IMG/VR virus record: IMGVR_UViG_3300012917_000001
Span: 1 to 43,514 of that record
Reading direction: 5' to 3' (one strand)
DNA: 43,514 nt
From: a virus
In this document: in pieces, positions 6,789 through 43,514 of the stretch
Numbering within the stretch: position 1 is the stretch's first letter
How the letters are laid out: the number at the start of each line of letters is the position of its first letter
The notes under the pieces: model-generated
Told to the model about the DNA's origin: nothing
Seen by the model: the letters and a program-made list of their open reading frames with translations, nothing else
Databases searched by the model: none
Made by a program: the position numbers and the translations under genes

Positions 6789-8885
6789 TTACTTACTACT
6801 AGTCATTGGGCGACTAGCTGCCTTCATTGCGGCTTGCGCCGCGAGATACGATGCCTGGGCCTTCAGGTGCTCAATAGGCAGCTTGGCTGCACTAATATGC
6901 AACTGCCCGTGCTGAACGTCCTGCTCGGTCTTCTCTAACTGCAACCGAGAGATATCAACCATATGGCTATTGCCGTCCATCTGTGCCTCGTGGGTTATCT
7001 TGAACGCTTGTGCGTGAGCAAGATCGGCTTGCGCCTGTGCCCTGCCGGCCTCTGCCTTAGCTAGTTCCATCTGCATCTGAACTAGCTGTTGCTGCATCTG
7101 TTGTTCCTGCTGTTGCGCCTGCTGTGCCTGCGGGCTGGGATTGATTACACCATCTATGATCTTGAGAATCTCGCCCTTATTGGACAAGCTAGTGTTCTCG
7201 ATAATGCCCTTAGCCAGCACAAGCTGTACTTGATGGAAGTCTGGGGGCATCATACCCATCAACTGAGTCATCTGCATAGCCTCGACTTCGCGGGCTACAA
7301 TACCGATGGTCGTCTTAATGCTGATATCAAAGTCTTTGGGATACCGCATCGGATCAAACTGCATATAACGCCAGAGGCACTTCTGCACAATAGGATGCAC
7401 GAAGTTACGGCAAATGCCCGCGATTGAACGCTTTGACCTCTTTACAAAGGCGCCCATTAGGGCCGAGTTTGAAGAAGCGCCATTGGCACCGCTCTGCGAT
7501 TGGGCCTTGAGAGCACTTGCAGTATCGAAACTGCCCGTTCCCATCTGCACCATACGCTCCATTTCCTGCGTCTGTTGGAACGTCAGGCTGCTGTAGTCGC
7601 CTACTGTCACTGGCTGGAGGACATCCTTCGGCGGACCCTGCGTTGTCCATACTTTTCCGGGTTTGACTTCGAATCTGAATCCACGAGGCAAGCGACCGGA
7701 GTCAACCCCAAGCATAGGAGCGCTAATATACCCAAGAGCGTCCATCCTAGCCCGAAGTTCCGCATCAAGCGCCTTCTGCGGGTTATATCCTTTCTCAGCC
7801 ACACCGCGTCCCCAAAAGCGACCGGGTACTTTCTCAAACTGAGCAGCAACAATCGAGCGATCTTGCATCGTGAAAGGATTAACCATAGCCCGAAGCAGGA
7901 CACCATTATTTGCAATAGTAACAATAGCTTCGACGTACGGTCCCATCCCGTTCATATCAACGTCAGTGCTTTTGGTGCCTTCGCCTATAGCGCGGTCAAG
8001 AGCAGAACGTTCCTCTTTCTTGCCAAGCGCGGTCATATAGCGTAGAGGAACTTTGCCGTGGTATTCGATAAGATCGACCTGCCCGCTCTCATAAGTCGTA
8101 TTGATCGATTGCGGGTCTTCCTGATCTATATCCGAGTTCTTCAGGCGCCGAGTAGGGAATATCTGAGCTAGTGCATCCTTTCTGTACACACCCTGCTCAA
8201 TCCTTTCAAGGACATAGTGCATGGTTCTCTGCACACGCTGCGCGCAGCCTTCCATCTGCTGAATGTCTTTGCCTACCGGATCAGGTACAAACTCGTCGGG
8301 CCTTACCGACTCTACAGATACGAATACCCGCTTTTTATTGTTTGATTGTAGTTCTTGGGATTTTGGGTTTCGCGAGAGTTTTTGATCGTGCCCGACGAAA
8401 ACATTAACCTTACCAATCATAGTGCCAAACAAGGCACCGTTGGTAATGGCTTCCATGATCTGATCTTTGGCGTTAACCTTCTCCAGATCATCTATTAGTT
8501 GATCGCGCATTAACAGAGACAGAAGTTCATCTGCTAACTTGTCCTTTTCACCAACATCGAACCATTCCTTACGAGAGAAGATAGCCTCCTCAATCTCGCT
8601 AACGGTTTGTTCGATGGCTTGTGCAAGCGCGGGGGCTACAAGCTTACTGCGTTCGGATAGGCGGTTCATATCCGCTTCGTTCCACTTACCGCGCCACATG
8701 CGCCAATACTCGCCCCAAAGGCGCTGGTAGCCGCGGTTACGGACATCTTCCCAGATATTGACTTTAGTCGTGATCCAGCCGACCAGCATAGCGCCCGCCG
8801 GCTGCTCTAGGCGGCTTTTCTGAGCATCTATGGATTCTGGCGTCTCGACCAGAATGGATTGGCCGCGTGTCGGCATTACAGTCAT
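6789..8885 (-). CDS. Portal (head-tail connector) protein, 698 aa
   Basis: Lies directly downstream of the large terminase. Contains RGYQRLWGEYWRMWRGKW and a Q/A-rich coiled C-terminal tail. Size and synteny fit a portal. Confidence 0.8.
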   Translation of the reverse strand: MTVMPTRGQSILVETPESIDAQKSRLEQPAGAMLVGWITTKVNIWEDVRNRGYQRLWGEYWRMWRGKWNEADMNRLSERSKLVAPALAQAIEQTVSEIEEAIFSRKEWFDVGEKDKLADELLSLLMRDQLIDDLEKVNAKDQIMEAITNGALFGTMIGKVNVFVGHDQKLSRNPKSQELQSNNKKRVFVSVESVRPDEFVPDPVGKDIQQMEGCAQRVQRTMHYVLERIEQGVYRKDALAQIFPTRRLKNSDIDQEDPQSINTTYESGQVDLIEYHGKVPLRYMTALGKKEERSALDRAIGEGTKSTDVDMNGMGPYVEAIVTIANNGVLLRAMVNPFTMQDRSIVAAQFEKVPGRFWGRGVAEKGYNPQKALDAELRARMDALGYISAPMLGVDSGRLPRGFRFEVKPGKVWTTQGPPKDVLQPVTVGDYSSLTFQQTQEMERMVQMGTGSFDTASALKAQSQSGANGASSNSALMGAFVKRSKRSIAGICRNFVHPIVQKCLWRYMQFDPMRYPKDFDISIKTTIGIVAREVEAMQMTQLMGMMPPDFHQVQLVLAKGIIENTSLSNKGEILKIIDGVINPSPQAQQAQQQEQQMQQQLVQMQMELAKAEAGRAQAQADLAHAQAFKITHEAQMDGNSHMVDISRLQLEKTEQDVQHGQLHISAAKLPIEHLKAQASYLAAQAAMKAASRPMTSSK

Positions 8886-8893
8886 GTATGGTC

Positions 8894-10198
8894 CTAGTGA
8901 ATATACAGCTCAACTTCGTCCCACTCCTGAATATCAGTAGTTTCAGCGAAGTTTGCGGTTGACATCTGGTCAACGTAAGACAGGGCATCAATGCCATCAT
9001 CGTGAGACAACGGGTCAGGGAAGTCGGCTATCTGATCTAGCAGGTAATTATTCCAGTCATCTTTTACAAGACTGATTTTATGCCGCTGTGCTCGTCCTTG
9101 CAGTGCCCATTGAATACGGTCGTATTTCCGCGTGTTATTGTGCCTAAGCGGCTCGGGAGTAATATATCGTCCGAAGGTACGCATGTATTCTTCGAGATAA
9201 GGCCCAACAGCGTTAAGTAAAGCTCCCTGTTCCACGCCAAGGCGGCAGCCTGGATATGAACGCGCTGTTCCAATAATTCTTGCTGCTGTCTCACGTACTC
9301 CCCAGTGACCATGTAGAACATCAAGCACCGTCCAGTCGTCTTCTATTACCGATGTTACGCAGATTACGCTTTCGTCAGTCCGCAGTACTTTCTTACCTTG
9401 ATTGCTGGTTGTGAACCCTGCCAGATCACATGTGAGAAACAGCGAGCCGAATGTTGGCGGAACTGCTAGTATCGGGAAGTCGGCAGGGCTAAGTACCTTC
9501 CCGCCCCCGCTCACGAAGTCTGCCTCCAGCTCCTGCCGGATCATGTCGCGGCTCTTGTTGGGGTTGTTATAGATGCGAGCTATCTCGCGCTCTTTCAGAT
9601 AAGGGTTATCCCGTGATACGAAGTGGAACGCCTCCCAATCCTCGAATCCTGTCCTGCCTTCTAGGGCACTGATGAATAGCTCATAGAAGTGGTTTTTGCC
9701 TTTCGGCGTACCGATAAACAGCGCACCGCCTTCTACGTCCATCAATGCGGGATCTATAATGTCATCCCAGACATTCGATTTCATGTCGGCATACTCGTCG
9801 AGTACTACGAAGGAATAGCCTTCGCCGCGCAGGGCGTCTTCGTTATCGGCCCCCTTGACATAGATACGCCGACCGTTGATTAGCTCAAAGTACCCATCGT
9901 TAATATTCTCGCCTCGTATAAAGCCGCCCTGCTTCTCGTATCCAAGCAGGATACGTAGGCGTCTCCACATAATTCGTTTGGCTTGGTCAAACGTGGGTGC
10001 AACGTAATAGACGCCATGTTCTGGCGTTAGCGTGTAGCCGCGCTCATTAACTTTCTTGAGAGCTTCTATCCCTAATAGACAAGCGGCCAAGTAGGTCTTG
10101 CCGAACCGCCGGCCAGCAGCGCATATTCGGAACCTCTTGGCCGAGTTGAAAATAGCTTGCTGCGCAGGATGCAGCGCTATGCGGAAGACTCTCTCCAT
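8894..10198 (-). CDS. terL: Terminase large subunit, 434 aa
   Basis: Walker A-like AAGRRFGKT and Walker B-like FVVLDEYADM, followed by a C-terminal nuclease-like half. Lies immediately upstream of the portal. Confidence 0.9.
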   Translation of the reverse strand: MERVFRIALHPAQQAIFNSAKRFRICAAGRRFGKTYLAACLLGIEALKKVNERGYTLTPEHGVYYVAPTFDQAKRIMWRRLRILLGYEKQGGFIRGENINDGYFELINGRRIYVKGADNEDALRGEGYSFVVLDEYADMKSNVWDDIIDPALMDVEGGALFIGTPKGKNHFYELFISALEGRTGFEDWEAFHFVSRDNPYLKEREIARIYNNPNKSRDMIRQELEADFVSGGGKVLSPADFPILAVPPTFGSLFLTCDLAGFTTSNQGKKVLRTDESVICVTSVIEDDWTVLDVLHGHWGVRETAARIIGTARSYPGCRLGVEQGALLNAVGPYLEEYMRTFGRYITPEPLRHNNTRKYDRIQWALQGRAQRHKISLVKDDWNNYLLDQIADFPDPLSHDDGIDALSYVDQMSTANFAETTDIQEWDEVELYIH

Positions 10199-10788: not shown

Positions 10789-11000
10789 TAGGTACTCCCC
10801 TTTGGGCGGTCGGTGGACTGATTATTAGGCTGTCCGCTCTTGCCCTGAAAATCTGTAACCATATGTAAAGTCACTTCAGGATCATGGCCGGCTAGATTGC
10901 CGCCATGGTATTGATCCGTCGGTGCTTCCTGACAGCCTCTATCCATCGCTGCCGGCATGGGCTTTGACGGGGGCTGAGAATCAGTCGTGCCCTTAGCCAT
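10788..11000 (-). CDS. Hypothetical protein, 70 aa
   Basis: Track ORF overlapping both neighbours by a few nt. Confidence 0.45.
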   Translation of the reverse strand: MAKGTTDSQPPSKPMPAAMDRGCQEAPTDQYHGGNLAGHDPEVTLHMVTDFQGKSGQPNNQSTDRPKGST

Positions 11001-11418
11001 TCGATACTACCTCTGTATAAGTGCCCTCTAGGGGCGGTTTGTCTTCTTGCTGCGCTTTGAACGTAGCATTTTCAATCTTGATCGTTATGCTTTGCCCTTG
11101 GTGGGTTTCTTCTTCTGCCATCTTCGGTTTCTGAATGAAGTACTCGAAGATCAACTTACGGCAAGCCAGCCCCGCCTTATCGTTGTGTGTGGCGTCTCTG
11201 AAAGTCGCCTCGACGACCTTAATGATTCGCTCAGCCGGGAAGTGCTTACGCACTGCCTTTTCAATATGCAACTGTATGTCGCCGATCTCTAACTTAGGAG
11301 GACGGCCGGGACTATTCACAGTACCCGGAAGGAAACGCCCAGCCGAGTCTCTAGTTGTGACCGAGCCCGCCGCCGGTGCCGCCGGCTCCGCTAGAACTTG
11401 GTCCTTGGTTTGATCCAT
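10993..11418 (-). CDS. Small-terminase-like protein, 141 aa
   Basis: The N-terminal RDSAGRFLPGTVNSPGRPPK resembles the GRF-x-x-G-x-SGNP-x-GRP motif of DUF5681-type small terminases. It lies upstream of terL but is separated from it by three small ORFs. Confidence 0.5.
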   Translation of the reverse strand: MDQTKDQVLAEPAAPAAGSVTTRDSAGRFLPGTVNSPGRPPKLEIGDIQLHIEKAVRKHFPAERIIKVVEATFRDATHNDKAGLACRKLIFEYFIQKPKMAEEETHQGQSITIKIENATFKAQQEDKPPLEGTYTEVVSNG

Positions 11419-13532: not shown

Positions 13533-13751
13533 CTATATTCTAGCGTGATGTACAACATGCGCACCCTGCATCCCACCGGCATAGCTATGCGTCGGGGGCG
13601 GGAACGAAGTCTTTGCGCTCTCTTGCGGCTTATTGAAATGCACGTCAAAGCCGGCTACGGCTTTAGGCAGAATAACTCCGCCAGCAAGGCCATGAGCCAC
13701 TGAGGAGCCGGTCATGCCGCTAGCGGCTTCTGGACGATAGGGACTTGCCAT
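13533..13751 (-). CDS. Hypothetical protein, 72 aa
   Basis: TAATG overlap with the upstream His-rich ORF. Confidence 0.5.
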   Translation of the reverse strand: MASPYRPEAASGMTGSSVAHGLAGGVILPKAVAGFDVHFNKPQESAKTSFPPPTHSYAGGMQGAHVVHHARI

Positions 13752-14089
13752 TAGTATCCTGCCTTATGTTCCATGCCTTTCTGCCTACGATCATGGACCG
13801 TATGCCGATGCTGGTGATGTGGAACCCCGCCCCTAACGGAGTGGGTAGACTGGTCATAGCTCTTGGTATTAGGGGCTATCGGGAGCTTACTCATGCCATG
13901 ATGTGGCTGGGAATGGCTCTGGTGGGGATGGGCATTGCCAATATTATGACTGGCATGATGATCGTCGTTATGATTGGATTCGTGAGCTGCATGCATGGCT
14001 ATGGCTACTATCTGTTTGTGGGAGCGGGGCCTACTCCCATGATGGGTAAGCTCGTGGATGTTCTCTGAGACGTTACCAGTTAGAGGCAT
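13751..14089 (-). CDS. Histidine-rich protein, 112 aa
   Basis: 22 His in 112 residues by my count. It starts 3 nt after the upstream stop and is TAATG-coupled downstream. The antisense Met-rich ORF mirrors its CAT codons. Confidence 0.55.
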   Translation of the reverse strand: MPLTGNVSENIHELTHHGSRPRSHKQIVAIAMHAAHESNHNDDHHASHNIGNAHPHQSHSQPHHGMSKLPIAPNTKSYDQSTHSVRGGVPHHQHRHTVHDRRQKGMEHKAGY

Positions 14090-14092
14090 AGA

Positions 14093-14212
14093 TTACGGCC
14101 TGTCGCTCATTCCTTTCGCAAAAGACCAAAGCAAGCCAATGCCTGCTCCAGCAATTACGATAAGAATACCAACGAACTTTAGTAATCCACCAATGGTAAT
14201 GGCATGATTCAT
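14093..14212 (-). CDS. Single-pass micro-membrane protein, 39 aa (below the track cut-off)
   Basis: Hand-translated as MNHAITIGGLLKFVGILIVIAGAGIGLLWSFAKGMSDRP. Its ATG shares one base with the upstream TAA (TAATG). Confidence 0.5.
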   Translation of the reverse strand: MNHAITIGGLLKFVGILIVIAGAGIGLLWSFAKGMSDRP

Positions 14213-14643
14213 TAGATTCTCCGGGTAATGACTGTACCGATAGAGAACTCTACGGCTGTGGGCAAGTCCCCATGGGATAAATTCTTATCGCCAGAGGGCT
14301 CTCCTGGGTAGCCATGTACCTCTCCGATAGCCAAGGGAATACCGCGGTTGTCATCGTAGTCCCCATCGTCAACTGGGTTGTACCTGTGAGTGGTAGCAGA
14401 TTCTGATACATCCCCTTCCTCGAAGAACTCTCTGTAGTCATCGTTTTCCTGCCAAGCGGATAAAGGCCCGGCTCTCCACGGGTGGAGATCCAGGAACGGG
14501 GCGTTGCCAGAAAGGTTCGGATCTTGGGAGACCGGAACGTCGTTAAGCTCGTCATCTGCCTGTGCATGCCCGGCGTTCTCCGTATGCCCAGTGCTAGGAG
14601 TAGTCGTACTATGATTGGCTTCTACGCCTGTGACATCAGCCAT
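14212..14643 (-). CDS. Strongly acidic protein, 143 aa; first gene of the minus arm
   Basis: 27 D+E versus 7 K+R by my count. It lies directly next to the control region. Confidence 0.65.
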   Translation of the reverse strand: MADVTGVEANHSTTTPSTGHTENAGHAQADDELNDVPVSQDPNLSGNAPFLDLHPWRAGPLSAWQENDDYREFFEEGDVSESATTHRYNPVDDGDYDDNRGIPLAIGEVHGYPGEPSGDKNLSHGDLPTAVEFSIGTVITRRI

Positions 14644-14714
14644 TCTAGGGGTCTACCTATGGTATATCCGCGAGCAGGGTACAGCGCGAGCGCTATCCGC
14701 AAGCAGGAAAAGTG

Positions 14715-14942
14715 GGGGGCGCTAAGCCCCCATACAGAGGGACTATAGCTATAGTAAGACAATAGTCTTGTTCTTAGGAGGTAGATAGGAACCCTTTTAG
14801 GGTTCATATCATGGGAGGAGTCTTCGACGACCGCATATACACCCCTTCGGGGTATTGCAAGTGAGGACACTTGCTTTAGGATCGACTTTCGCAAATGCTT
14901 AAAGCGCATTTGCTACAGTCTTAGATGTGCACCAAATGCATC
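14715..14942. other. Cluster of seven unrelated stem-loops/palindromes (candidate structured RNA or ssDNA signal)
   Basis: 14715-31 GGGGGC/GCCCCC. 14742-55 ACTATAGCTATAGT. 14756-69 AAGAC-AATA-GTCTT. 14789-805 GAACCC-TTTTA-GGGTTC. 14841-53 ACCCC-TTC-GGGGT. 14857-74 GCAAGTG-AGGA-CACTTGC. 14891-913 GCAAATGC-7nt-GCATTTGC. 14924-42 is imperfect. Confidence 0.6.
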
Positions 14943-14973
14943 GAAAATTATGTTAAATTGAAGCAGATTTGAA

Positions 14974-14995
14974 AAACTTAATGTAAACTTAATGT
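14974..14995. repeat. Perfect tandem 2 x 11-nt repeat AAACTTAATGT in the AT-rich core
   Basis: 14974-84 equals 14985-95. A degenerate third copy, TTATGTTAAA, lies just upstream. Confidence 0.8.
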
Positions 14996-15332
14996 TCGCT
15001 ATGCGAAAAGTCTAAATCTGCCTAAGTCTATTTTGTGATACTACTCACACTATGAAGTTATCCATATTTAACATCCTAGAGCATTGACTATCGCAAGCCG
15101 GATATGGCCCATATAGTGTCCCTAATCTTGCCTCCGCCGCGCCTATTATTTTTACTTTTTGGCGTGGGTGCGGGTCGCTACGCTCGGAGCCTCCTTGGCT
15201 GCCATGAGGGGGTACCCCCATAGCTCTAAGCCTATGATATCCTTGCACATTGAGATGTTGACAGACAGTATGAACTGTGATCTGTTACGATTATGTTCAA
15301 TTGTGTTCATGCAATAACTGTGCCATTGATTG

Positions 15333-15415
15333 TACTTGACAAGTGTAAGATGATGTGGCAGGCACATGTGTAAGGTAGGCTTTACACTTGGGCTGTAAGA
15401 TATCCCGACACTTGC
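15333..15415. promoter_or_regulatory. Operator/iteron-like repeat array (CAAGTG/CACTTG inverted repeats; TGTAAG x3 at 25-bp spacing)
   Basis: ACTTG-A-CAAGT palindrome at 15334-44. CAAGTGTAA (15340-48) pairs with TTACACTTG (15382-90). ACACTTG recurs at 15408-14. TGTAAG occurs at 15344, 15369 and 15394. Confidence 0.55.
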
Positions 15416-15865
15416 CACTCTCAAAGCACTGTACATATCCACAGTATGTCAAGCTCTTTGTGGTCAAAGTGTGATGCACTTCTCAGTATTCAAAATAGAT
15501 TAGAACATTGTCAAATTGATCGCACTTCGGCCCAGCAATCGGCAATACTGTGCGCTGATGGTTGATTGGCTGAGACGGTAGAGCTGGATAAAGCCTACGC
15601 TCTCGGGCCCGGTAAGGAAGGCCGGAGACAGTGAGCGCACCGCGCGCCGCAGCGTTAGAGCTGGCATGAGGCGGGAGCACTAGAGCACTCGCGACAGTGT
15701 GTGCGGACGGCAATCCAATGAGATAGCCGCATATTATGGAAAATAGCGGAATCCAGAATGTACTTGGTTCTTACATAATGCCAGACTCGTGTAGTCCCTC
15801 GCTTATGTTCATTCCCGAGTACATTAAGGATTCTGTTCAATTCCCCCCAACTGATAAGGTGAGTT

Positions 15866-16084: not shown

Positions 16085-16096
16085 TCAAGCCTGCGG

Positions 16097-16132
16097 CATT
16101 CGGAATTCAGTTCCGAGTGTCGCATTTTGATT
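16097..16132 (+). terminator. Putative intrinsic terminator after the first early gene
   Basis: CATTCGGAA-TTCAG-TTCCGAGTG stem (9 bp including one G-U pair), followed by TCGCATTTTGATT. Confidence 0.5.
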
Positions 16133-17381: not shown

Positions 17382-17650
17382 TCCCATACAAGCAATGGCT
17401 GCTAGCCAAGCAGCGCAGACGCATGCAAGGTTCATGGGGCGGAGACATACATCCGTCGAGCGGTACTGATTGTGGCGATCTGCATGATGTGGTACATTCA
17501 CCACAGTTCAAAGCTCGCTTTGCCGATCTGATAGGCATGGGCACACAAAATTCGGTGGTAACGCCACCAATCCGCTGCAGGGCGGTTTCCTGCGATACTA
17601 GTATCAGCGACGATAATGTTGGGCTAACGCCCAAAGGAGAGGACAAATGA
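17375..17650 (+). CDS. Hypothetical protein, 91 aa (ORF D)
   Basis: Starts in ATGCTAA and has an ATGA overlap with the next ORF. Confidence 0.5.
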   Translation: MLIPYKQWLLAKQRRRMQGSWGGDIHPSSGTDCGDLHDVVHSPQFKARFADLIGMGTQNSVVTPPIRCRAVSCDTSISDDNVGLTPKGEDK

Positions 17651-17901
17651 GTGGGATTCTGAAGTCAGTCAATGCGGCGGCCAAGAAGGACGTTCCGCAG
17701 ACCACGGGGCTCGTGTATCGTGGAGAGAAGGACGGAAGCACTATCGTGGGCTACTGGCTCAACGGTGTGTTCGTCGTGCTGTCACGGCACTCGACCCGTG
17801 GCGCAGCGTTGAACAAGATCAACGCTCTGAACGGCGGCACGGGCTGCGCGTTCGACTCGAAGGGCAACACATACGCGGTGTCTGCCGCGCGCGCTGCCTA
17901 A
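17647..17901 (+). CDS. Hypothetical protein, 84 aa (ORF E; last gene of the early unit)
   Basis: Track ORF with normal composition, followed by a strong terminator. Confidence 0.7.
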   Translation: MSGILKSVNAAAKKDVPQTTGLVYRGEKDGSTIVGYWLNGVFVVLSRHSTRGAALNKINALNGGTGCAFDSKGNTYAVSAARAA

Positions 17902-17903
17902 CA

Positions 17904-17950
17904 GGTTAGAGTAGCTAACCCTTGCCCCCCCGAAAGGGGGGGTAATTTTA
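17904..17950 (+). terminator. Tandem hairpins ending in a strong intrinsic terminator
   Basis: GGTTAG-AGTAG-CTAACC at 17904-20, then CCCCCCC-GAAA-GGGGGGG at 17925-42, followed by TAATTTTA. Confidence 0.8.
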
Positions 17951-17973
17951 GATACTCCATAGGAGAAAAAAGA

Positions 17974-20895: not shown

Positions 20896-20985
20896 ATGAC
20901 ACGAGTGAATATAATGACCGGGTACATAATGGCCGGAACAATCATCCTAGTACTGGCCTGCGGCAGTATAGCAGCAATGCTGTGA
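20896..20985 (+). CDS. Hydrophobic micro-peptide, 29 aa (below the track cut-off)
   Basis: SD TAAGGAG lies 6 nt before the ATG. Sequence MTRVNIMTGYIMAGTIILVLACGSIAAML. Its TGA overlaps the GTG start of the next gene (GTGA). Confidence 0.45.
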   Translation: MTRVNIMTGYIMAGTIILVLACGSIAAML

Positions 20986-21377
20986 AACTCGACGATACGC
21001 ATATAGCGGCGATACAGGCGCTATCTGTTTCGATCATCGCCCAATTACGACGAGACGGACGCTTTCCTGCTCGTTTAGACGAGGAGGATTATGCGGACAT
21101 ATCACAGGATGGGACACTCGCAGCACTCGGGCTATTCAATCGGTATGATCCTAATAGGGGCAGCCTGCGTGCTTTTATGGGTCCTGCTATGGCACGCGCT
21201 ATGCTGGCTTGTGCGTGGGCTCAGGCACAAGTGGGTATCACAGGCGACCATGGTGCCTTACAAGTCTGGAGTACAGACGACAACGAAGCAGAAGTCGAAC
21301 TACCTTTAGCGGATGACGTAGCCGCAGAGATAGAGGCTTTCGATCATGTGTGGCAATCGCATTATGTTCGCGATTGA
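20982..21377 (+). CDS. Sigma-70 region-2-only protein, 131 aa (gp55-like late sigma, or a decoy?)
   Basis: DISQDGTLAALGLFNRYDPNRGSLRAFMGPAMARAM parallels sigma-70 region 2.1-2.3 ([37 protein letters not shown]). No region 3 or 4 follows. Confidence 0.55.
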   Translation: MKLDDTHIAAIQALSVSIIAQLRRDGRFPARLDEEDYADISQDGTLAALGLFNRYDPNRGSLRAFMGPAMARAMLACAWAQAQVGITGDHGALQVWSTDDNEAEVELPLADDVAAEIEAFDHVWQSHYVRD

Positions 21378-21467
21378 ACATAATTTCGATAGCATTTGCC
21401 TAACATTACAAACTGCGAGAGCAAACATCTTTGACCCCATTTCCATGTCTCGCCAAGGTCATATCTG

Positions 21468-42797: not shown

Positions 42798-43514
42798 TAC
42801 GCGACACGTCCTAGTTTAACGGCGGCTTGAACCTGCTGTAGAGCGAAGACAGTGGTCACGCTCACAGTCATGCCAAATTGATAGTACTGGCCTCGGGCGC
42901 GCGAATCGTAGGTAACGAACACGGATGTTGCCCCGCCGCCATATTGGCCGATGCCATATTGACCAATACCGTACTGTGCATTGTTGCCAAAGCTGGCTAA
43001 ATTAAAGCTAGCTGAATTAGTCAGATTAGAGAAATCCGTACCCCAAGTTATACCCACAACGGCATTACCACCAGTGAATATGATGGCCTTGTAGCGCTTC
43101 AACATCTTCAGATGCACTGAAAGCTGTGGCCCGCCCTGTTGCGCAAAGGATATCCAAGGAGAAATCCAACTAAAGTCGTAGGCTAGGGTTTCGTCTGTAT
43201 TGCCAGTATATAGACCAACTTTGCCTGCTGTGCGCGCGATGTACATGAGGTTGTTATGGGATGTCATCATCGCCGTAGCGCGCATGCTCCATGTCGTTAC
43301 AGGCGAGCACACATTACCTGTGTCGTCTTGATAGCGCCTGCGTTGATCGAGCGCCCAAACCGTACTAGATGAAGGGGCATTTAATATGTAAAACCCAGTC
43401 AGTGGATTATACGTCGCCTGTAGTGCGTTAGGCGTCTCTTTGGTAATCTGTGCTAACAGAGAATCGCGGACATACTTGCCGAGATTGTATGTAGGATTAT
43501 TGCGGTCTGCTGTC
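42797..43514 (-). CDS. C-terminal part of the 613-aa wrap-around structural protein (unique part 42797..43391; 43392..43514 duplicates 1..123)
   Basis: The frame of track ORF 42797..43312 stays open upstream to the window end and is in phase with the ATG at 1247 across the repeat. Confidence 0.8.
   Translation of the reverse strand, partial: TADRNNPTYNLGKYVRDSLLAQITKETPNALQATYNPLTGFYILNAPSSSTVWALDQRRRYQDDTGNVCSPVTTWSMRATAMMTSHNNLMYIARTAGKVGLYTGNTDETLAYDFSWISPWISFAQQGGPQLSVHLKMLKRYKAIIFTGGNAVVGITWGTDFSNLTNSASFNLASFGNNAQYGIGQYGIGQYGGGATSVFVTYDSRARGQYYQFGMTVSVTTVFALQQVQAAVKLGRVA
43392..43514. repeat. Second copy of the 123-bp terminal direct repeat
   Basis: Identical to 1..123. Confidence 0.9.

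Follow-up and report, generated by a model that had tools for sequence, protein, structure and literature searches.

The run of hairpins at positions 14715-14942 of the window (the whole stretch of DNA that was analysed, 43,514 nt) is suggested, with moderate confidence, to be the body of a transcribed, structured 5' leader of about 300 nt on the leftward packaging/virion mRNA. The window is the complete circular genome (43.4 kb) of a podovirus-like phage, its assembly being circular by a 123-nt terminal overlap, and the hairpin run sits within a divergent region of 1.1-1.2 kb that holds no genes. It is bounded by a minus-strand sigma-70-like promoter (-10 at 14947-14952) on one side and by the first gene of the leftward arm (ATG at 14643) on the other, and the minus-strand genes leftward from 14643 include the large terminase (8894-10198) and the portal (6789-8885). 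Among the three roles proposed in the preliminary description, that of a 5' leader of the late arm is favoured because of this promoter-to-gene position, the same domain bounds in 27 relatives, the covarying stems and the asymmetry in mRNA sense. The promoter presumably fires, and RNA rather than DNA is probably the active form. All seven hairpins of the preliminary description, together with its palindrome at 14742-14755, were recovered at the same positions, and the features of the locus are, from 5' to 3' on the minus strand:

14972-14996, minus strand: two ACATTAAGTTT direct repeats, 11 bp apart, directly upstream of the promoter
14947-14975, minus strand: sigma-70-like promoter of the leftward arm, TTTTCA-17-CATAAT, 9/12 in the promoter scan
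14924-14942, minus strand: H7, imperfect hairpin (GATGCA..TGCACATC) with five pairs in the RNAfold model, lying where the transcript is predicted to begin
14884-14920, minus strand: H6, 8-bp stem GCAAAUGC/GCAUUUGC (14891-14913) with an outer 4-bp stem GACU/AGUC
14857-14874, minus strand: H5, 7-bp stem GCAAGUG/CACUUGC closed by a UCCU loop; this part of the leader is hypervariable
14839-14855, minus strand: H4, ACCCC GAA GGGGU; 5 bp (ACCCC/GGGGT) at 14841-14853
14784-14810, minus strand: H3, GAUA-U-GAACCCU AAA AGGGUUC-C-UAUC, with an A-rich loop
14765-14777, minus strand: conserved, single-stranded purine-rich motif CUAAGAA-C-AAGAC downstream of H3
14756-14769, minus strand: H2, AAGAC UAUU GUCUU, 5 bp (AAGAC/GTCTT)
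14742-14755, minus strand: 14-nt palindrome ACUAUAGCUAUAGU, given as ACTATAGCTATAGT in the coordinate check
14705-14731, minus strand: H1, GC-only 6-bp stem GGGGGC UUAGC GCCCCC at 14715-14731, followed by CACUUUUCC
14683-14694, minus strand: small hairpin AGCG CUCG CGCU
14669-14678, minus strand: conserved box CCUGCUCGCG, 26-35 nt upstream of the ATG
14212-14643, minus strand: first gene of the leftward arm, encoding an acidic protein of 143 aa (pI 4.25)

The amount of structure in the run exceeds that expected by chance. RNAfold gave -82.9 kcal/mol for the plus strand of 14700-14950 (z -4.10) and -82.1 for the minus strand (z -6.20), and none of 200 dinucleotide shuffles (shuffled controls had been proposed beforehand) folded as well. 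A scan of the whole window (230-nt steps, base-pair span of at most 30 nt, energy regressed on GC content) placed the hairpin run as the top outlier of the minus strand (z -4.03, the next being -3.16), while on the plus strand it ranked second (z -3.93) to 17741-17970 (z -4.25). The original statement that the density lies far above the rest of the window is hence slightly overstated. With unrestricted span the run is merely in the upper tail (z about -2.7).

The comparison was extended to about 27 related metagenomic loci from uncultured phages (numbered L003 to L068 below), which were located via homologues of the first gene. The 143-aa protein that served as anchor has 34 homologues at E<=1e-5, and Pfam and PHROG searches placed it in no family; neither the leader nor the first gene is covered by Rfam, Pfam or PHROG annotation. 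Megablast and blastn found no similar DNA in cultured phages, no relative was detected among 185,579 species genomes scanned with the first-gene alignment and with the terminase, and a pattern search of IMG/VR with an 18-mer of H3 gave no match. The portal shares only about 24% identity with its counterparts in Pelagibacter and Roseobacter podoviruses. A hairpin run occupies the same place in the approximately 27 relatives, most of its hairpin sequences being different. Within the 280 nt upstream of the homologous gene, short-range folding reaches z < -3 in 25 of the 27 loci, and the mean z is -5.4 for this leader segment, -1.4 for the segment 620-900 nt upstream and -1.0 for coding sequence. 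Of the bases between -300 and -101, 27-31% lie in perfect stems of 6 bp or more; the figure is 9-12% for the remainder of the intergenic region and 5% for coding sequence. Moreover, in eight of nine relatives hairpins cover more of the segment from the -10 element to the ATG than of the 250 nt that precede the -10.

Hairpins at homologous positions differ through compensatory changes. A covariance model built from H3 to the ATG matches only the minus strand at the leader position, in at least 15 loci, and nothing elsewhere in 284 kb. In the model-based alignment, which is biased towards the modelled structure, 92.8% of the cells pair and 15 of the 17 modelled pairs show double-sided changes. 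The covariation score is 0.273, compared with 0.073 for shuffles (0/500 reach the observed score) and 0.007-0.065 for slid controls, so that the check for covariation among homologues, as advised earlier, turned out positive. Helix 1 (H3) is 99% paired with double-sided changes in 7/7 pairs, and helix 2 (H1) is 100% paired with such changes in 4/6. Across the relatives the leader stems are perfect, 5-8 bp long and on average 59% GC. The hairpins of the run are mutually unrelated in sequence, as had been noted, and this proves to be a key property, for relatives often carry different hairpins at one and the same place. Stem sequence, loop and even the number of hairpins turn over, and for most hairpins selection apparently acts only on their being stable hairpins.

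The single elements differ in their degree of conservation. The flanks of H7 (TTTGG..ACATCTAAGA) are conserved in L057, L068 and L030. Homologues of H6 read GCAAATGC/GCATTTGC in L030 and GCAATTGC/GCAATTGC in L057 and L059, the latter representing a compensatory A-T to T-A change, and their loops are completely different. The stretch 14814-14914 cannot be aligned with L057, which possesses other perfect hairpins there. H4 can be extended to 7 pairs via one U-G pair on the minus strand only, and its positional homologues are GCCCCC GAA GGGGGC (L030), ACCCAC GTA GTGGGT (L066) and AGCCC TAC GGGCT (L057). The best conserved hairpin of the family is H3, whose stem at 14789-14805 can be drawn with 7 bp and a 3-nt loop or with 6 bp and a 5-nt loop. 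It is identical in L057, L066 and L068, its outer stem shows a compensatory change in L030 (CCAG..CCGG), and a GGAACCC..GGGTTCC stem is found again in the distant L054 and L039. At the position of the palindrome L057 has GCTAT GCT ATAGC, the outer pair being changed from A-T to G-C. Positional homologues of H1 are GGGGGTC/GACCCCC (L057, L068 and L030), GCACCC/GGGTGC (L060), GCCGGC/GCCGGC (L062) and AGCCCC/GGGGCT (L066), and they are followed by CA in most loci and by CC in L059. Closer to the gene, CCTGCTCGCG is identical in 10 of the 13 listed close-relative sequences and differs by one base in two more, while CCTGC of the CCUGCUCGCG-box region forms the 3' arm of a hairpin in L030 and L031.

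Eighteen of 28 leaders have the motif C[TA][TA]AGA[AT] at 38-270 nt before the ATG, in several of them within about 11 nt after a hairpin; its orientation is not discriminating, as the opposite-strand counts over the same stretches are similar. We rejected CUAAGAA as a genome-wide promoter element (6 copies of CTAAGAA in the window, about 5 expected) and found its interpretation as a mimic of a CRISPR repeat unsupported, with no match in Rfam.

The -10 hexamer of the putative promoter lies inside TTAACATAAT (14947-14956), and transcription would start near 14939-14942. ACATAA is invariant in an alignment of 11 relative sequences, 197-318 nt upstream of the ATG, and homologous promoter sites are seen in L003 (TTGAAA-17-CATAAT, 10/12) and L057 (ATGAAA-17-CATAAT). 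The assignment is a consensus match, and several relatives have a weak -35 element or none. The pair of ACATTAAGTTT repeats is a candidate regulator-binding site. The 25-mer that contains them is also present in L004 at an unchanged relative position, and variants in either orientation occur in L030, L031, L034, L036, L038, L048, L050, L059 and L060. The ACATTAAGTTT motif is unique within the window. A different repeat, ACTTAATGT, was discarded as a genome-wide motif, showing no enrichment in the window.

The leader does not seem to code for protein. The ORF at 14622-14909 has tblastn matches only where the DNA itself aligns, the frames of both strands being equal, and no conserved ORF was found in the leader. 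Rfam 15 gave no match at gathering scores in the whole window and none at E<=5 in 14550-15800. ARAGORN called no tRNA or tmRNA, in keeping with the earlier judgement that the run is not tRNA-like. RNAalifold suggested that a CCUCC-containing linker or the 3' arm of H3 pairs with the Shine-Dalgarno sequence, an idea that was dropped (mean z -0.24, 28 loci). A full-text literature search returned nothing describing such hairpin arrays. By its position between promoter and ATG, its conserved and covarying structure and its non-coding character, the region has, as far as sequence can tell, the properties of a generic structured cis-regulatory 5' leader.

We propose that host RNA polymerase would transcribe the leader leftward, on the minus strand, from the sigma-70-like promoter into the gene that starts at the ATG at 14643. 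Folding during transcription would give a chain of short, mutually independent stem-loops (H7 to H1) with G-poor single-stranded linkers in between. In their generic role the hairpins would cap the 5' end of the transcript and leave no long unstructured stretch, and may in this way shield it against endonucleases and Rho loading. They may also hold a few conserved elements in a defined context, namely H3 and its A-rich loop, the purine-rich CUAAGAA tract, the CCUGCUCGCG box and the GC-rich H1. Each of these is a candidate target of factors that regulate expression of the virion-gene block. A protective or regulatory role is inferred here from a generic argument, and the turnover in sequence, loop and number of hairpins fits a generic physical role. 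It is also possible, but clearly less so, that the leader represents a new type of cis-element, an array of interchangeable hairpins that acts by a specific mechanism and not by generic stabilisation. Single hairpins would then change their sequence freely, while the array itself would be kept ahead of the virion genes throughout a family of uncultured podoviruses. Under that alternative, H3 and CUAAGAA/(ARN)n might recruit or modify the host polymerase, Hfq or another RNA-binding factor, or the array might set the timing of late expression or act as a decoy against host defences that sense RNA or DNA structure.

Among known systems, the late-operon leader of lambda, with the pR' promoter, the 6S leader RNA, the tR' terminator and antitermination by Q, is similar to the phage leader in several respects. 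Both are ORF-free, span a few hundred nucleotides from a host-type promoter to the first packaging/virion gene, and have a GC-rich hairpin near the 3' end; here too a host-type promoter stands directly upstream of an ORF-free leader before virion genes. On the same logic it is conceivable, although rather unlikely, that the promoter is always active and that transcription stops or pauses in the run, chiefly at H1 and CACUUUUCC, until a phage factor from the rightward arm allows read-through into the virion genes, an RNA of about 230 nt accumulating in the uninduced state. H1 is listed as terminator-like by the terminator scan, the sole leader hairpin in the window to pass it. It is conserved in position, its GC-rich stems covary, and in most relatives CA and a pyrimidine-rich tail come after the homologous stem. 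Genes expected to be late are preceded by several leftward sigma-70-like promoters, and a small ORF of the other arm (20982-21377) has a weak Pfam match to Sigma70_r2 (22.7 bits, cut-off 24), with no match in PDB and PHROG searches. However, the hairpins of the run have the GC-rich stem-loops of intrinsic terminators but lack their U-tract within about 8 nt downstream. The only T-run, a weak one on the minus strand after the hairpin at 14715-14731 (CACTTTTCC), was rightly singled out in the preliminary description, and the terminator scan agrees; it is not conserved in L030, L059, L060, L066 and L003. After 129 leader hairpins the next 8 nt contain on average 2.4 T, with five or more T in only 7 cases, and a tandem array of terminators was rejected for want of T enrichment after the hairpins on either strand. 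The phage does have canonical T-run terminators elsewhere in the window (16092-16124 and 17925-17942). Searches of Pfam, PHROGs and PDB revealed no antiterminator family, Q and N included, for this genome (39 ORFs scanned against Pfam or PHROGs, many small ORFs lacking annotation). Lambda has one terminator in its late leader, whereas the phage here has at least seven independent hairpins with a weak, poorly kept U-tract, and no Q homologue, Q-binding element or sequence similarity to lambda was identified. The same weak and variable U-run of the last hairpin makes a stand-alone non-coding RNA, which had also been suggested, a weaker reading. In lambdoid phages the nut (boxA/boxB) and put antitermination sites likewise act in cis, as stem-loops of leaders close to a promoter. 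In stem and A-rich loop, H3 (CCCU AAA AGGG) bears a superficial likeness to lambda boxB (GCCCU GAAAA AGGGC), and CACAA/CCCAA pentaloops of relatives recall the loop of P22 boxB (GACAA). But the loop of H3 has three nucleotides, AAA (or reads UAAAA), without the initial G needed for a GNRA-like fold, and the pentaloops of the relatives are CCCAA, CACAA and ACCAA. The only boxA-like (CGCUCUUA-like) string, CCUGCUCGCG, is misplaced, lying about 100 nt downstream of H3 instead of a few nt upstream, and searches revealed no N-like protein. A put site, unlike the hairpin run, is a pair of specific stem-loops with conserved sequence.

The inverted repeats may instead act as DNA, either single-stranded or extruded, which we likewise consider doubtful. 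They could serve as signals for priming or assembly on the strand displaced at a transcription-primed (R-loop) replication origin downstream of the promoter, or cruciforms that take up negative supercoiling between divergent promoters. Hairpin signals in single-stranded DNA, raised as a role at the outset, are kept as a rival in view of stems that are Watson-Crick nearly throughout and show no clear bias to G-U; they are compatible with such stems, while nothing positively supports them. In broad counts on the sense strand G-U is not in excess over A-C (2 vs 5; 12 vs 17). The two best-aligned helices, H3 and H1, lean towards G-U (4 G-U cells versus 1 A-C cell), which speaks for the mRNA sense, as does the U-G pair of H4. 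Both strands fold equally well, the antisense strand being equal or slightly better in absolute energy and the difference in z-score between strands marginal (Wilcoxon p=0.054), and neither GNRA nor UUCG, the usual loop motifs of stable RNA hairpins, is enriched. C-GNA-G triloops (GAA, GTA, GGA), which are unusually stable in DNA, occur in several hairpins, yet GNA triloops are not enriched over their complement (8 vs 6). Genes for a Toprim primase, a DnaB-like helicase, a family A polymerase and an RNase H-like protein are present in the phage itself, and the divergent intergenic region also contains iteron-like repeats and an A-rich tract; these AT-rich and iteron-like features suited to an origin lie upstream of the run, however, and not inside it. 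The asymmetry between strands is in the mRNA sense, with A-rich loops (37% A vs 26% T, p=0.003) and G-poor linkers (24.5% C vs 19.9% G, p=7e-8), and a domain bounded by promoter and start codon would be needless for a DNA element. N4 virion RNA polymerase promoters and single-strand initiation signals, such as the complementary-strand origins of G4 or phiX174 and plasmid ssi, resemble the run as non-coding clusters of perfect 5-8 bp stems with 3-5-nt loops. N4 hairpins, though, share conserved bases and are served by a giant virion RNA polymerase. We rejected promoters of this type, since the hairpins here have no common sequence and ORFs of up to 726 aa have no RNA polymerase domain; the largest in the window encode 726, 698, 680 and 658 aa, that of 698 aa being the portal and that of 658 aa the family A DNA polymerase. 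As for ssi signals, the genomes or strands on which they work are single-stranded as part of the life cycle. A packaging or genome-terminus recognition site, the third of the roles proposed earlier, finds no support and is extremely unlikely. The run does head the arm with the packaging genes, and a few hundred nucleotides at most separate it from the ends of some short contigs of relatives. On the other hand, the likely terminase genes are 3.2-5.7 kb away, the large terminase at 4.4 kb and the candidate small subunit at about 3.2 kb (ORF 10993-11418, whose homologues in L065 and L067 carry DUF5681). The window and the complete-length contigs of relatives start and end at varied positions relative to the first gene and give no sign of a terminus here, and the hairpins share no sequence, while terminase sites are normally repeated sequence motifs. 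Finally, perfect inverted repeats could build up without function in unconstrained non-coding DNA, for instance by template-switch correction of quasi-palindromes, as the fast turnover of single hairpins and the lack of constraint on loops and sequences might suggest. This explanation is already disfavoured and quite improbable, because the rest of the gene-free region is far poorer in hairpins, the richness recurs in 25 of 27 diverged loci and compensatory changes maintain homologous stems.

For the reading as a structured mRNA leader, further parallels are stabilising stem-loops at the 5' terminus of bacterial and phage mRNAs, such as those of the ompA 5' UTR and of the early leader that precedes gene 0.3 in T7 and contains an RNase III site. 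There as here, structure near the 5' end of a long untranslated leader outweighs sequence for stability, and the T7 leader similarly follows host-type promoters (in tandem) and precedes a small acidic first gene product. In those cases one or two hairpins are involved, whereas here 5-8 short stems fill the whole leader, their number being a conserved property of the family. RNase III sites need about 20 bp.

If this interpretation is true, the run would be an uncatalogued structured leader common to an entire phage family that has yet to be cultured (at least 27 distinct metagenomic loci). Its conserved trait would be unusual, namely that stable hairpins are present, and dense, within a delimited domain of 300 nt, together with three to four short motifs and no fixed fold. 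The leader would offer a clean natural case for asking what generic hairpins do for a long untranslated leader of a phage mRNA, possible answers being protection from RNases or Rho, timing of virion genes and recruitment of factors. The conserved -10 element, H3 and the CCUGCUCGCG box may further serve as an annotation landmark for the start of the virion-gene arm, and the covariance model from the H3-to-ATG alignment could seed an RNA family.

All seven hairpins and the palindrome that the preliminary description placed at 14715-14942 are present at these coordinates. The 251 nt around the run fold at z = -4.1 (plus strand) and z = -6.2 (minus strand), better than every one of 200 dinucleotide shuffles. 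In a genome scan for local hairpins (230-nt windows, pair span ≤30 nt, GC-corrected), the run is the strongest short-range folding outlier on the minus strand (z = -4.03) but second on the plus strand (z = -3.93); the earlier statement that its density is far above anything elsewhere is thus a little too strong. With unrestricted folding the run is merely in the upper tail of the genome, and what sets it apart is how densely short local hairpins are packed. The top plus-strand outlier, 17741-17970, is a second hairpin-dense stretch, mostly within a conserved 84-aa ORF (17647-17901); at its end, before a 566-aa amidoligase-like gene, stands a textbook terminator (CCCCCCC GAAA GGGGGGG followed by TAATTTT).

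The terminal 123 nt are identical (an exact direct repeat of 1-123 at 43392-43514), which shows the window to be a genome of 43,391 bp assembled as a closed circle. No DNA-level similarity to cultured phages was found, and the portal is about 24% identical to portals of Pelagibacter and Roseobacter podoviruses, and no closer. The run is located in a gene-free region of 1.1-1.2 kb between two divergent arms, directly upstream of the first leftward gene:

Features of the two arms and of the region between them
6789-8885, minus strand: SU10/P22-type portal, leftward arm
8894-10198, minus strand: T4-type large terminase, leftward arm
13751-14089, minus strand: second leftward gene, product with 22 histidines in 112 aa
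14212-14643, minus strand: first leftward gene, 143-aa strongly acidic product (pI 4.25, 27 D+E) with invariant DYDDN and NDDY motifs
14975-14947, minus strand: predicted promoter TTTTCA-17-CATAAT (consensus match), at the upstream edge of the hairpin run
14972-14996: direct repeat of ACATTAAGTTT (two copies, 11 bp apart), shortly upstream of this promoter
About 15770 to 36462, plus strand: rightward arm with Toprim primase, DnaB-like helicase, family A DNA polymerase, 5'-3' exonuclease and RNase H-like protein

By circularity, the leftward arm extends through 43312-36388, where a holin is found. Neither the first nor the second gene product matched a Pfam or PHROG family; in the related loci L003 and L004 the second gene likewise encodes a His-rich product. 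No RNA polymerase gene was found in the genome.

Relatives were collected from IMG/VR with a terminase query, from JGI metagenomes with an alignment of the first-gene product, and from a collection of 5.8 billion proteins with the same product, the contigs of the hits then being looked up. About 27 distinct loci with an upstream region were obtained, and their first gene is between 75% and about 35% identical to that of the window (start codons are approximate in some of them). About 0.8-1.1 kb without a called gene precedes the first gene in all six contigs fetched with 3 kb upstream. The 280 nt directly upstream of the homologous gene show short-range folding at z < -3 in 25 of 27 loci (mean z = -5.4 for the gene's strand, -5.0 for its complement), compared with control means of -1.4 (620-900 nt upstream) and -1.0 (coding sequence). 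Measured as the fraction of bases in perfect stems of 6 bp or more, hairpin coverage is 27-31% from -300 to -101 relative to the ATG, 19% from -100 to -1, 9-12% in the rest of the intergenic region and about 5% in coding DNA on both sides. Moreover, this richness persists where the DNA is not alignable between relatives. For instance, the window and L057 (first-gene products 74% identical) align at about 80% over 14602-14814 and 14914-14960, while 14814-14914, which holds H4 to H6, is not alignable and is occupied by other perfect hairpins in L057.

Compensatory changes separate the positional homologues of four of the hairpins, numbered H7 to H1 along the minus strand:

Stems with compensatory changes
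H6 (14891-14913): GCAAATGC/GCATTTGC in the window and L030; GCAATTGC/GCAATTGC in L057 and L059, loops unrelated
H4 (14841-14853): ACCCC GAA GGGGT in the window; GCCCCC GAA GGGGGC in L030; ACCCAC GTA GTGGGT in L066
H3 outer stem (within 14784-14810): GATA/TATC in the window; CCAG/CCGG in L030
H1 (14715-14731): GGGGGC/GCCCCC in the window; GGGGGTC/GACCCCC, GCACCC/GGGTGC, GCCGGC/GCCGGC and AGCCCC/GGGGCT in relatives

The same is seen at a position without a clear hairpin in the window (GGCCAAG/CTTGGCC in L068 versus GGCCTTG/CAAGGCC in L057). A covariance model of the part from H3 to the ATG, built from four sequences, matches at least 15 loci (E = 1e-60 to 1e-4), only on the gene's strand and in the leader position; elsewhere in 284 kb, on both strands, it has no match. 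Covariation with homologues is also found, as 92.8% of cells pair and 15 of 17 pairs have changed on both sides, in an alignment that was fitted to the model and is biased towards it. The covariation score is 0.273, versus 0.073 in shuffles (none of 500 reaches it) and 0.007-0.065 with slid partners. The hairpin conserved most widely is H3 (GAACCC..GGGTTC, A-rich loop), which reappears in the distant L054 and L039. As read from these comparisons, with an alignment that leans to the model, the stems are under selection.

In a distant subgroup (L034, L036, L041, L045 and L035), one leader hairpin, some 200-260 nt ahead of the ATG, has a 3' arm with two possible partners, its own 5' arm or a repeat of that arm further downstream, as in L045 (GAAACACT..AGTGTTTC CCCAA GAAACAC). 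Both pairings covary, because the sequences differ between loci, and the hairpin is a possible RNA switch; none was seen in the window.

All promoter calls here are consensus matches. When 11 sequences from relatives are aligned, ACATAA never varies within the motif T(T/A/G)ACATAA(T/A), which lies 197-318 nt ahead of the ATG. A scan located homologous sites in L003 (TTGAAA-17-CATAAT, 10/12) and L057 (ATGAAA-17-CATAAT). Further copies of the -10-like motif (15299-15290, minus; 15771-15779 and 21375-21384, plus) are all intergenic and oriented as the downstream genes. Hairpin coverage between the -10 and the ATG exceeds that of the 250 nt upstream of the -10 in eight of nine relatives. The start is inferred near 14940, the 5' foot of H7, and hence the transcript would open with a stem-loop. 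The exact 25-mer 14972-14996 also occurs in L004, whose terminase is only 66% identical, and variants of the ACATTAAGTTT repeat occur in about ten relatives in either orientation; these repeats are probably a regulator binding site.

Several other elements were observed. The non-coding block 15142-15233 (minus-strand sense) is about 90% identical to L057, far above the leader or neighbouring proteins. Within it are the palindrome GGGGGTACCCCC, the sequence GAGCGTAGCGAC and a tract rich in A, CCAAAAAGTAAAAATAATAGG, that reappears as CCAAAAAATAAAAAATA in many relatives. A conserved promoter-like element, TCAACA-16-TATCAT, and another copy of the TGAACATAAT motif come before the block (promoter-like sites: 15234-15261 and 15290-15299). 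This block could be a small RNA, the upstream part of a longer leader or an origin unwinding element. In more distant relatives, the leader is preceded by (A/T)ATCAA(T/C)GACTTAC, repeated in tandem three or four times at a spacing of 43-45 bp (L006, 5626-5727; L053, 2408-2573; also L049, L050, L045, L041 and L036), with single copies inside the leader of L036, L041, L045 and L050 and no good copy in the window; the motif conforms to WATCAANNNNTTR, the IHF consensus. A perfect palindrome with 9-bp arms at 21361-21384 (ATTATGTTC GCGATT GAACATAAT) contains the leader-type -10-like motif in each orientation. It lies at the stop codon of an ORF of 131 aa (20982-21377), which has a Sigma70_r2 match of 22.7 bits, under the cut-off of 24, and no PDB or PHROG match.

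Protein coding in the run was ruled out, and so was sequestration of the ribosome-binding site by the hairpins, which was tested. The run matches no tRNA, as had been described, and fails the defining tests of intrinsic terminators, nut/boxB, N4 hairpin promoters and every Rfam family. Usual terminators are rejected by the lack of T enrichment after 129 leader hairpins; textbook ones lie elsewhere in the window, at 16092-16124 and 17925-17942. The reported shortage of U-tracts was borne out, with a T-run solely at H1 on the minus strand. The leader reading has one main variant, a lambda-like scheme of attenuation and antitermination with H1 at its centre; H1 is terminator-like in the window and its closest relatives only, and the T-run is not conserved.

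The weakest point of the analysis is whether the hairpins act as RNA or DNA, and on which strand. The main true rival is a DNA-level role in a transcription-primed origin. Against RNA, the stems are nearly all Watson-Crick, and in two broad counts G-U does not outnumber A-C on the gene's strand (2 versus 5 and 12 versus 17); in favour of sense-strand RNA, the two best-aligned helices have four G-U cells against one A-C cell and H4 gains two pairs via a U-G pair on the gene's strand only. The non-gene strand folds equally well, yet the z-scores lean to the gene's strand (Wilcoxon p = 0.054) and the hairpin domain is bounded by the promoter and the start codon. The loops are not rich in GNRA or UUCG, but the pentaloop that recurs among them (CCCAA, CACAA or ACCAA) is specific to one strand, and on the gene's strand loops have 37% A versus 26% T (p = 0.003) and linkers 24.5% C versus 19.9% G (p = 7e-8), p values that are optimistic since related loci are not independent samples. 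On balance, minus-strand RNA is favoured as the predicted active form.

As such an RNA, the leftward arm would be transcribed by the host polymerase from the conserved promoter, and its first ~300 nt would fold as a string of independent stem-loops. Most hairpins seem to be constrained only to be stable, from which we infer a generic role: they would provide a capped 5' end and a leader without a long unstructured stretch. This leader should withstand 5'-end-dependent and endonucleolytic decay, and would offer no Rho loading site on untranslated RNA. Four elements in it are conserved: H3, a purine tract (CUAAGAA-N-AAGA) that may resemble an (ARN)n Hfq-type site, the GC-rich H1, which is followed by CA in most relatives, and a CCUGCUCGCG box 26-35 nt before the ATG. 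They are candidate sites for specific control of virion-gene expression. The closest analogue in layout is the lambda pR'-tR' late leader, and the closest in logic are 5' stabiliser hairpins and the T7 early leader. We class the run as a predicted structured phage mRNA leader, which would be distinctive among known ones in that conservation applies to an array of interchangeable hairpins rather than to a fixed fold.
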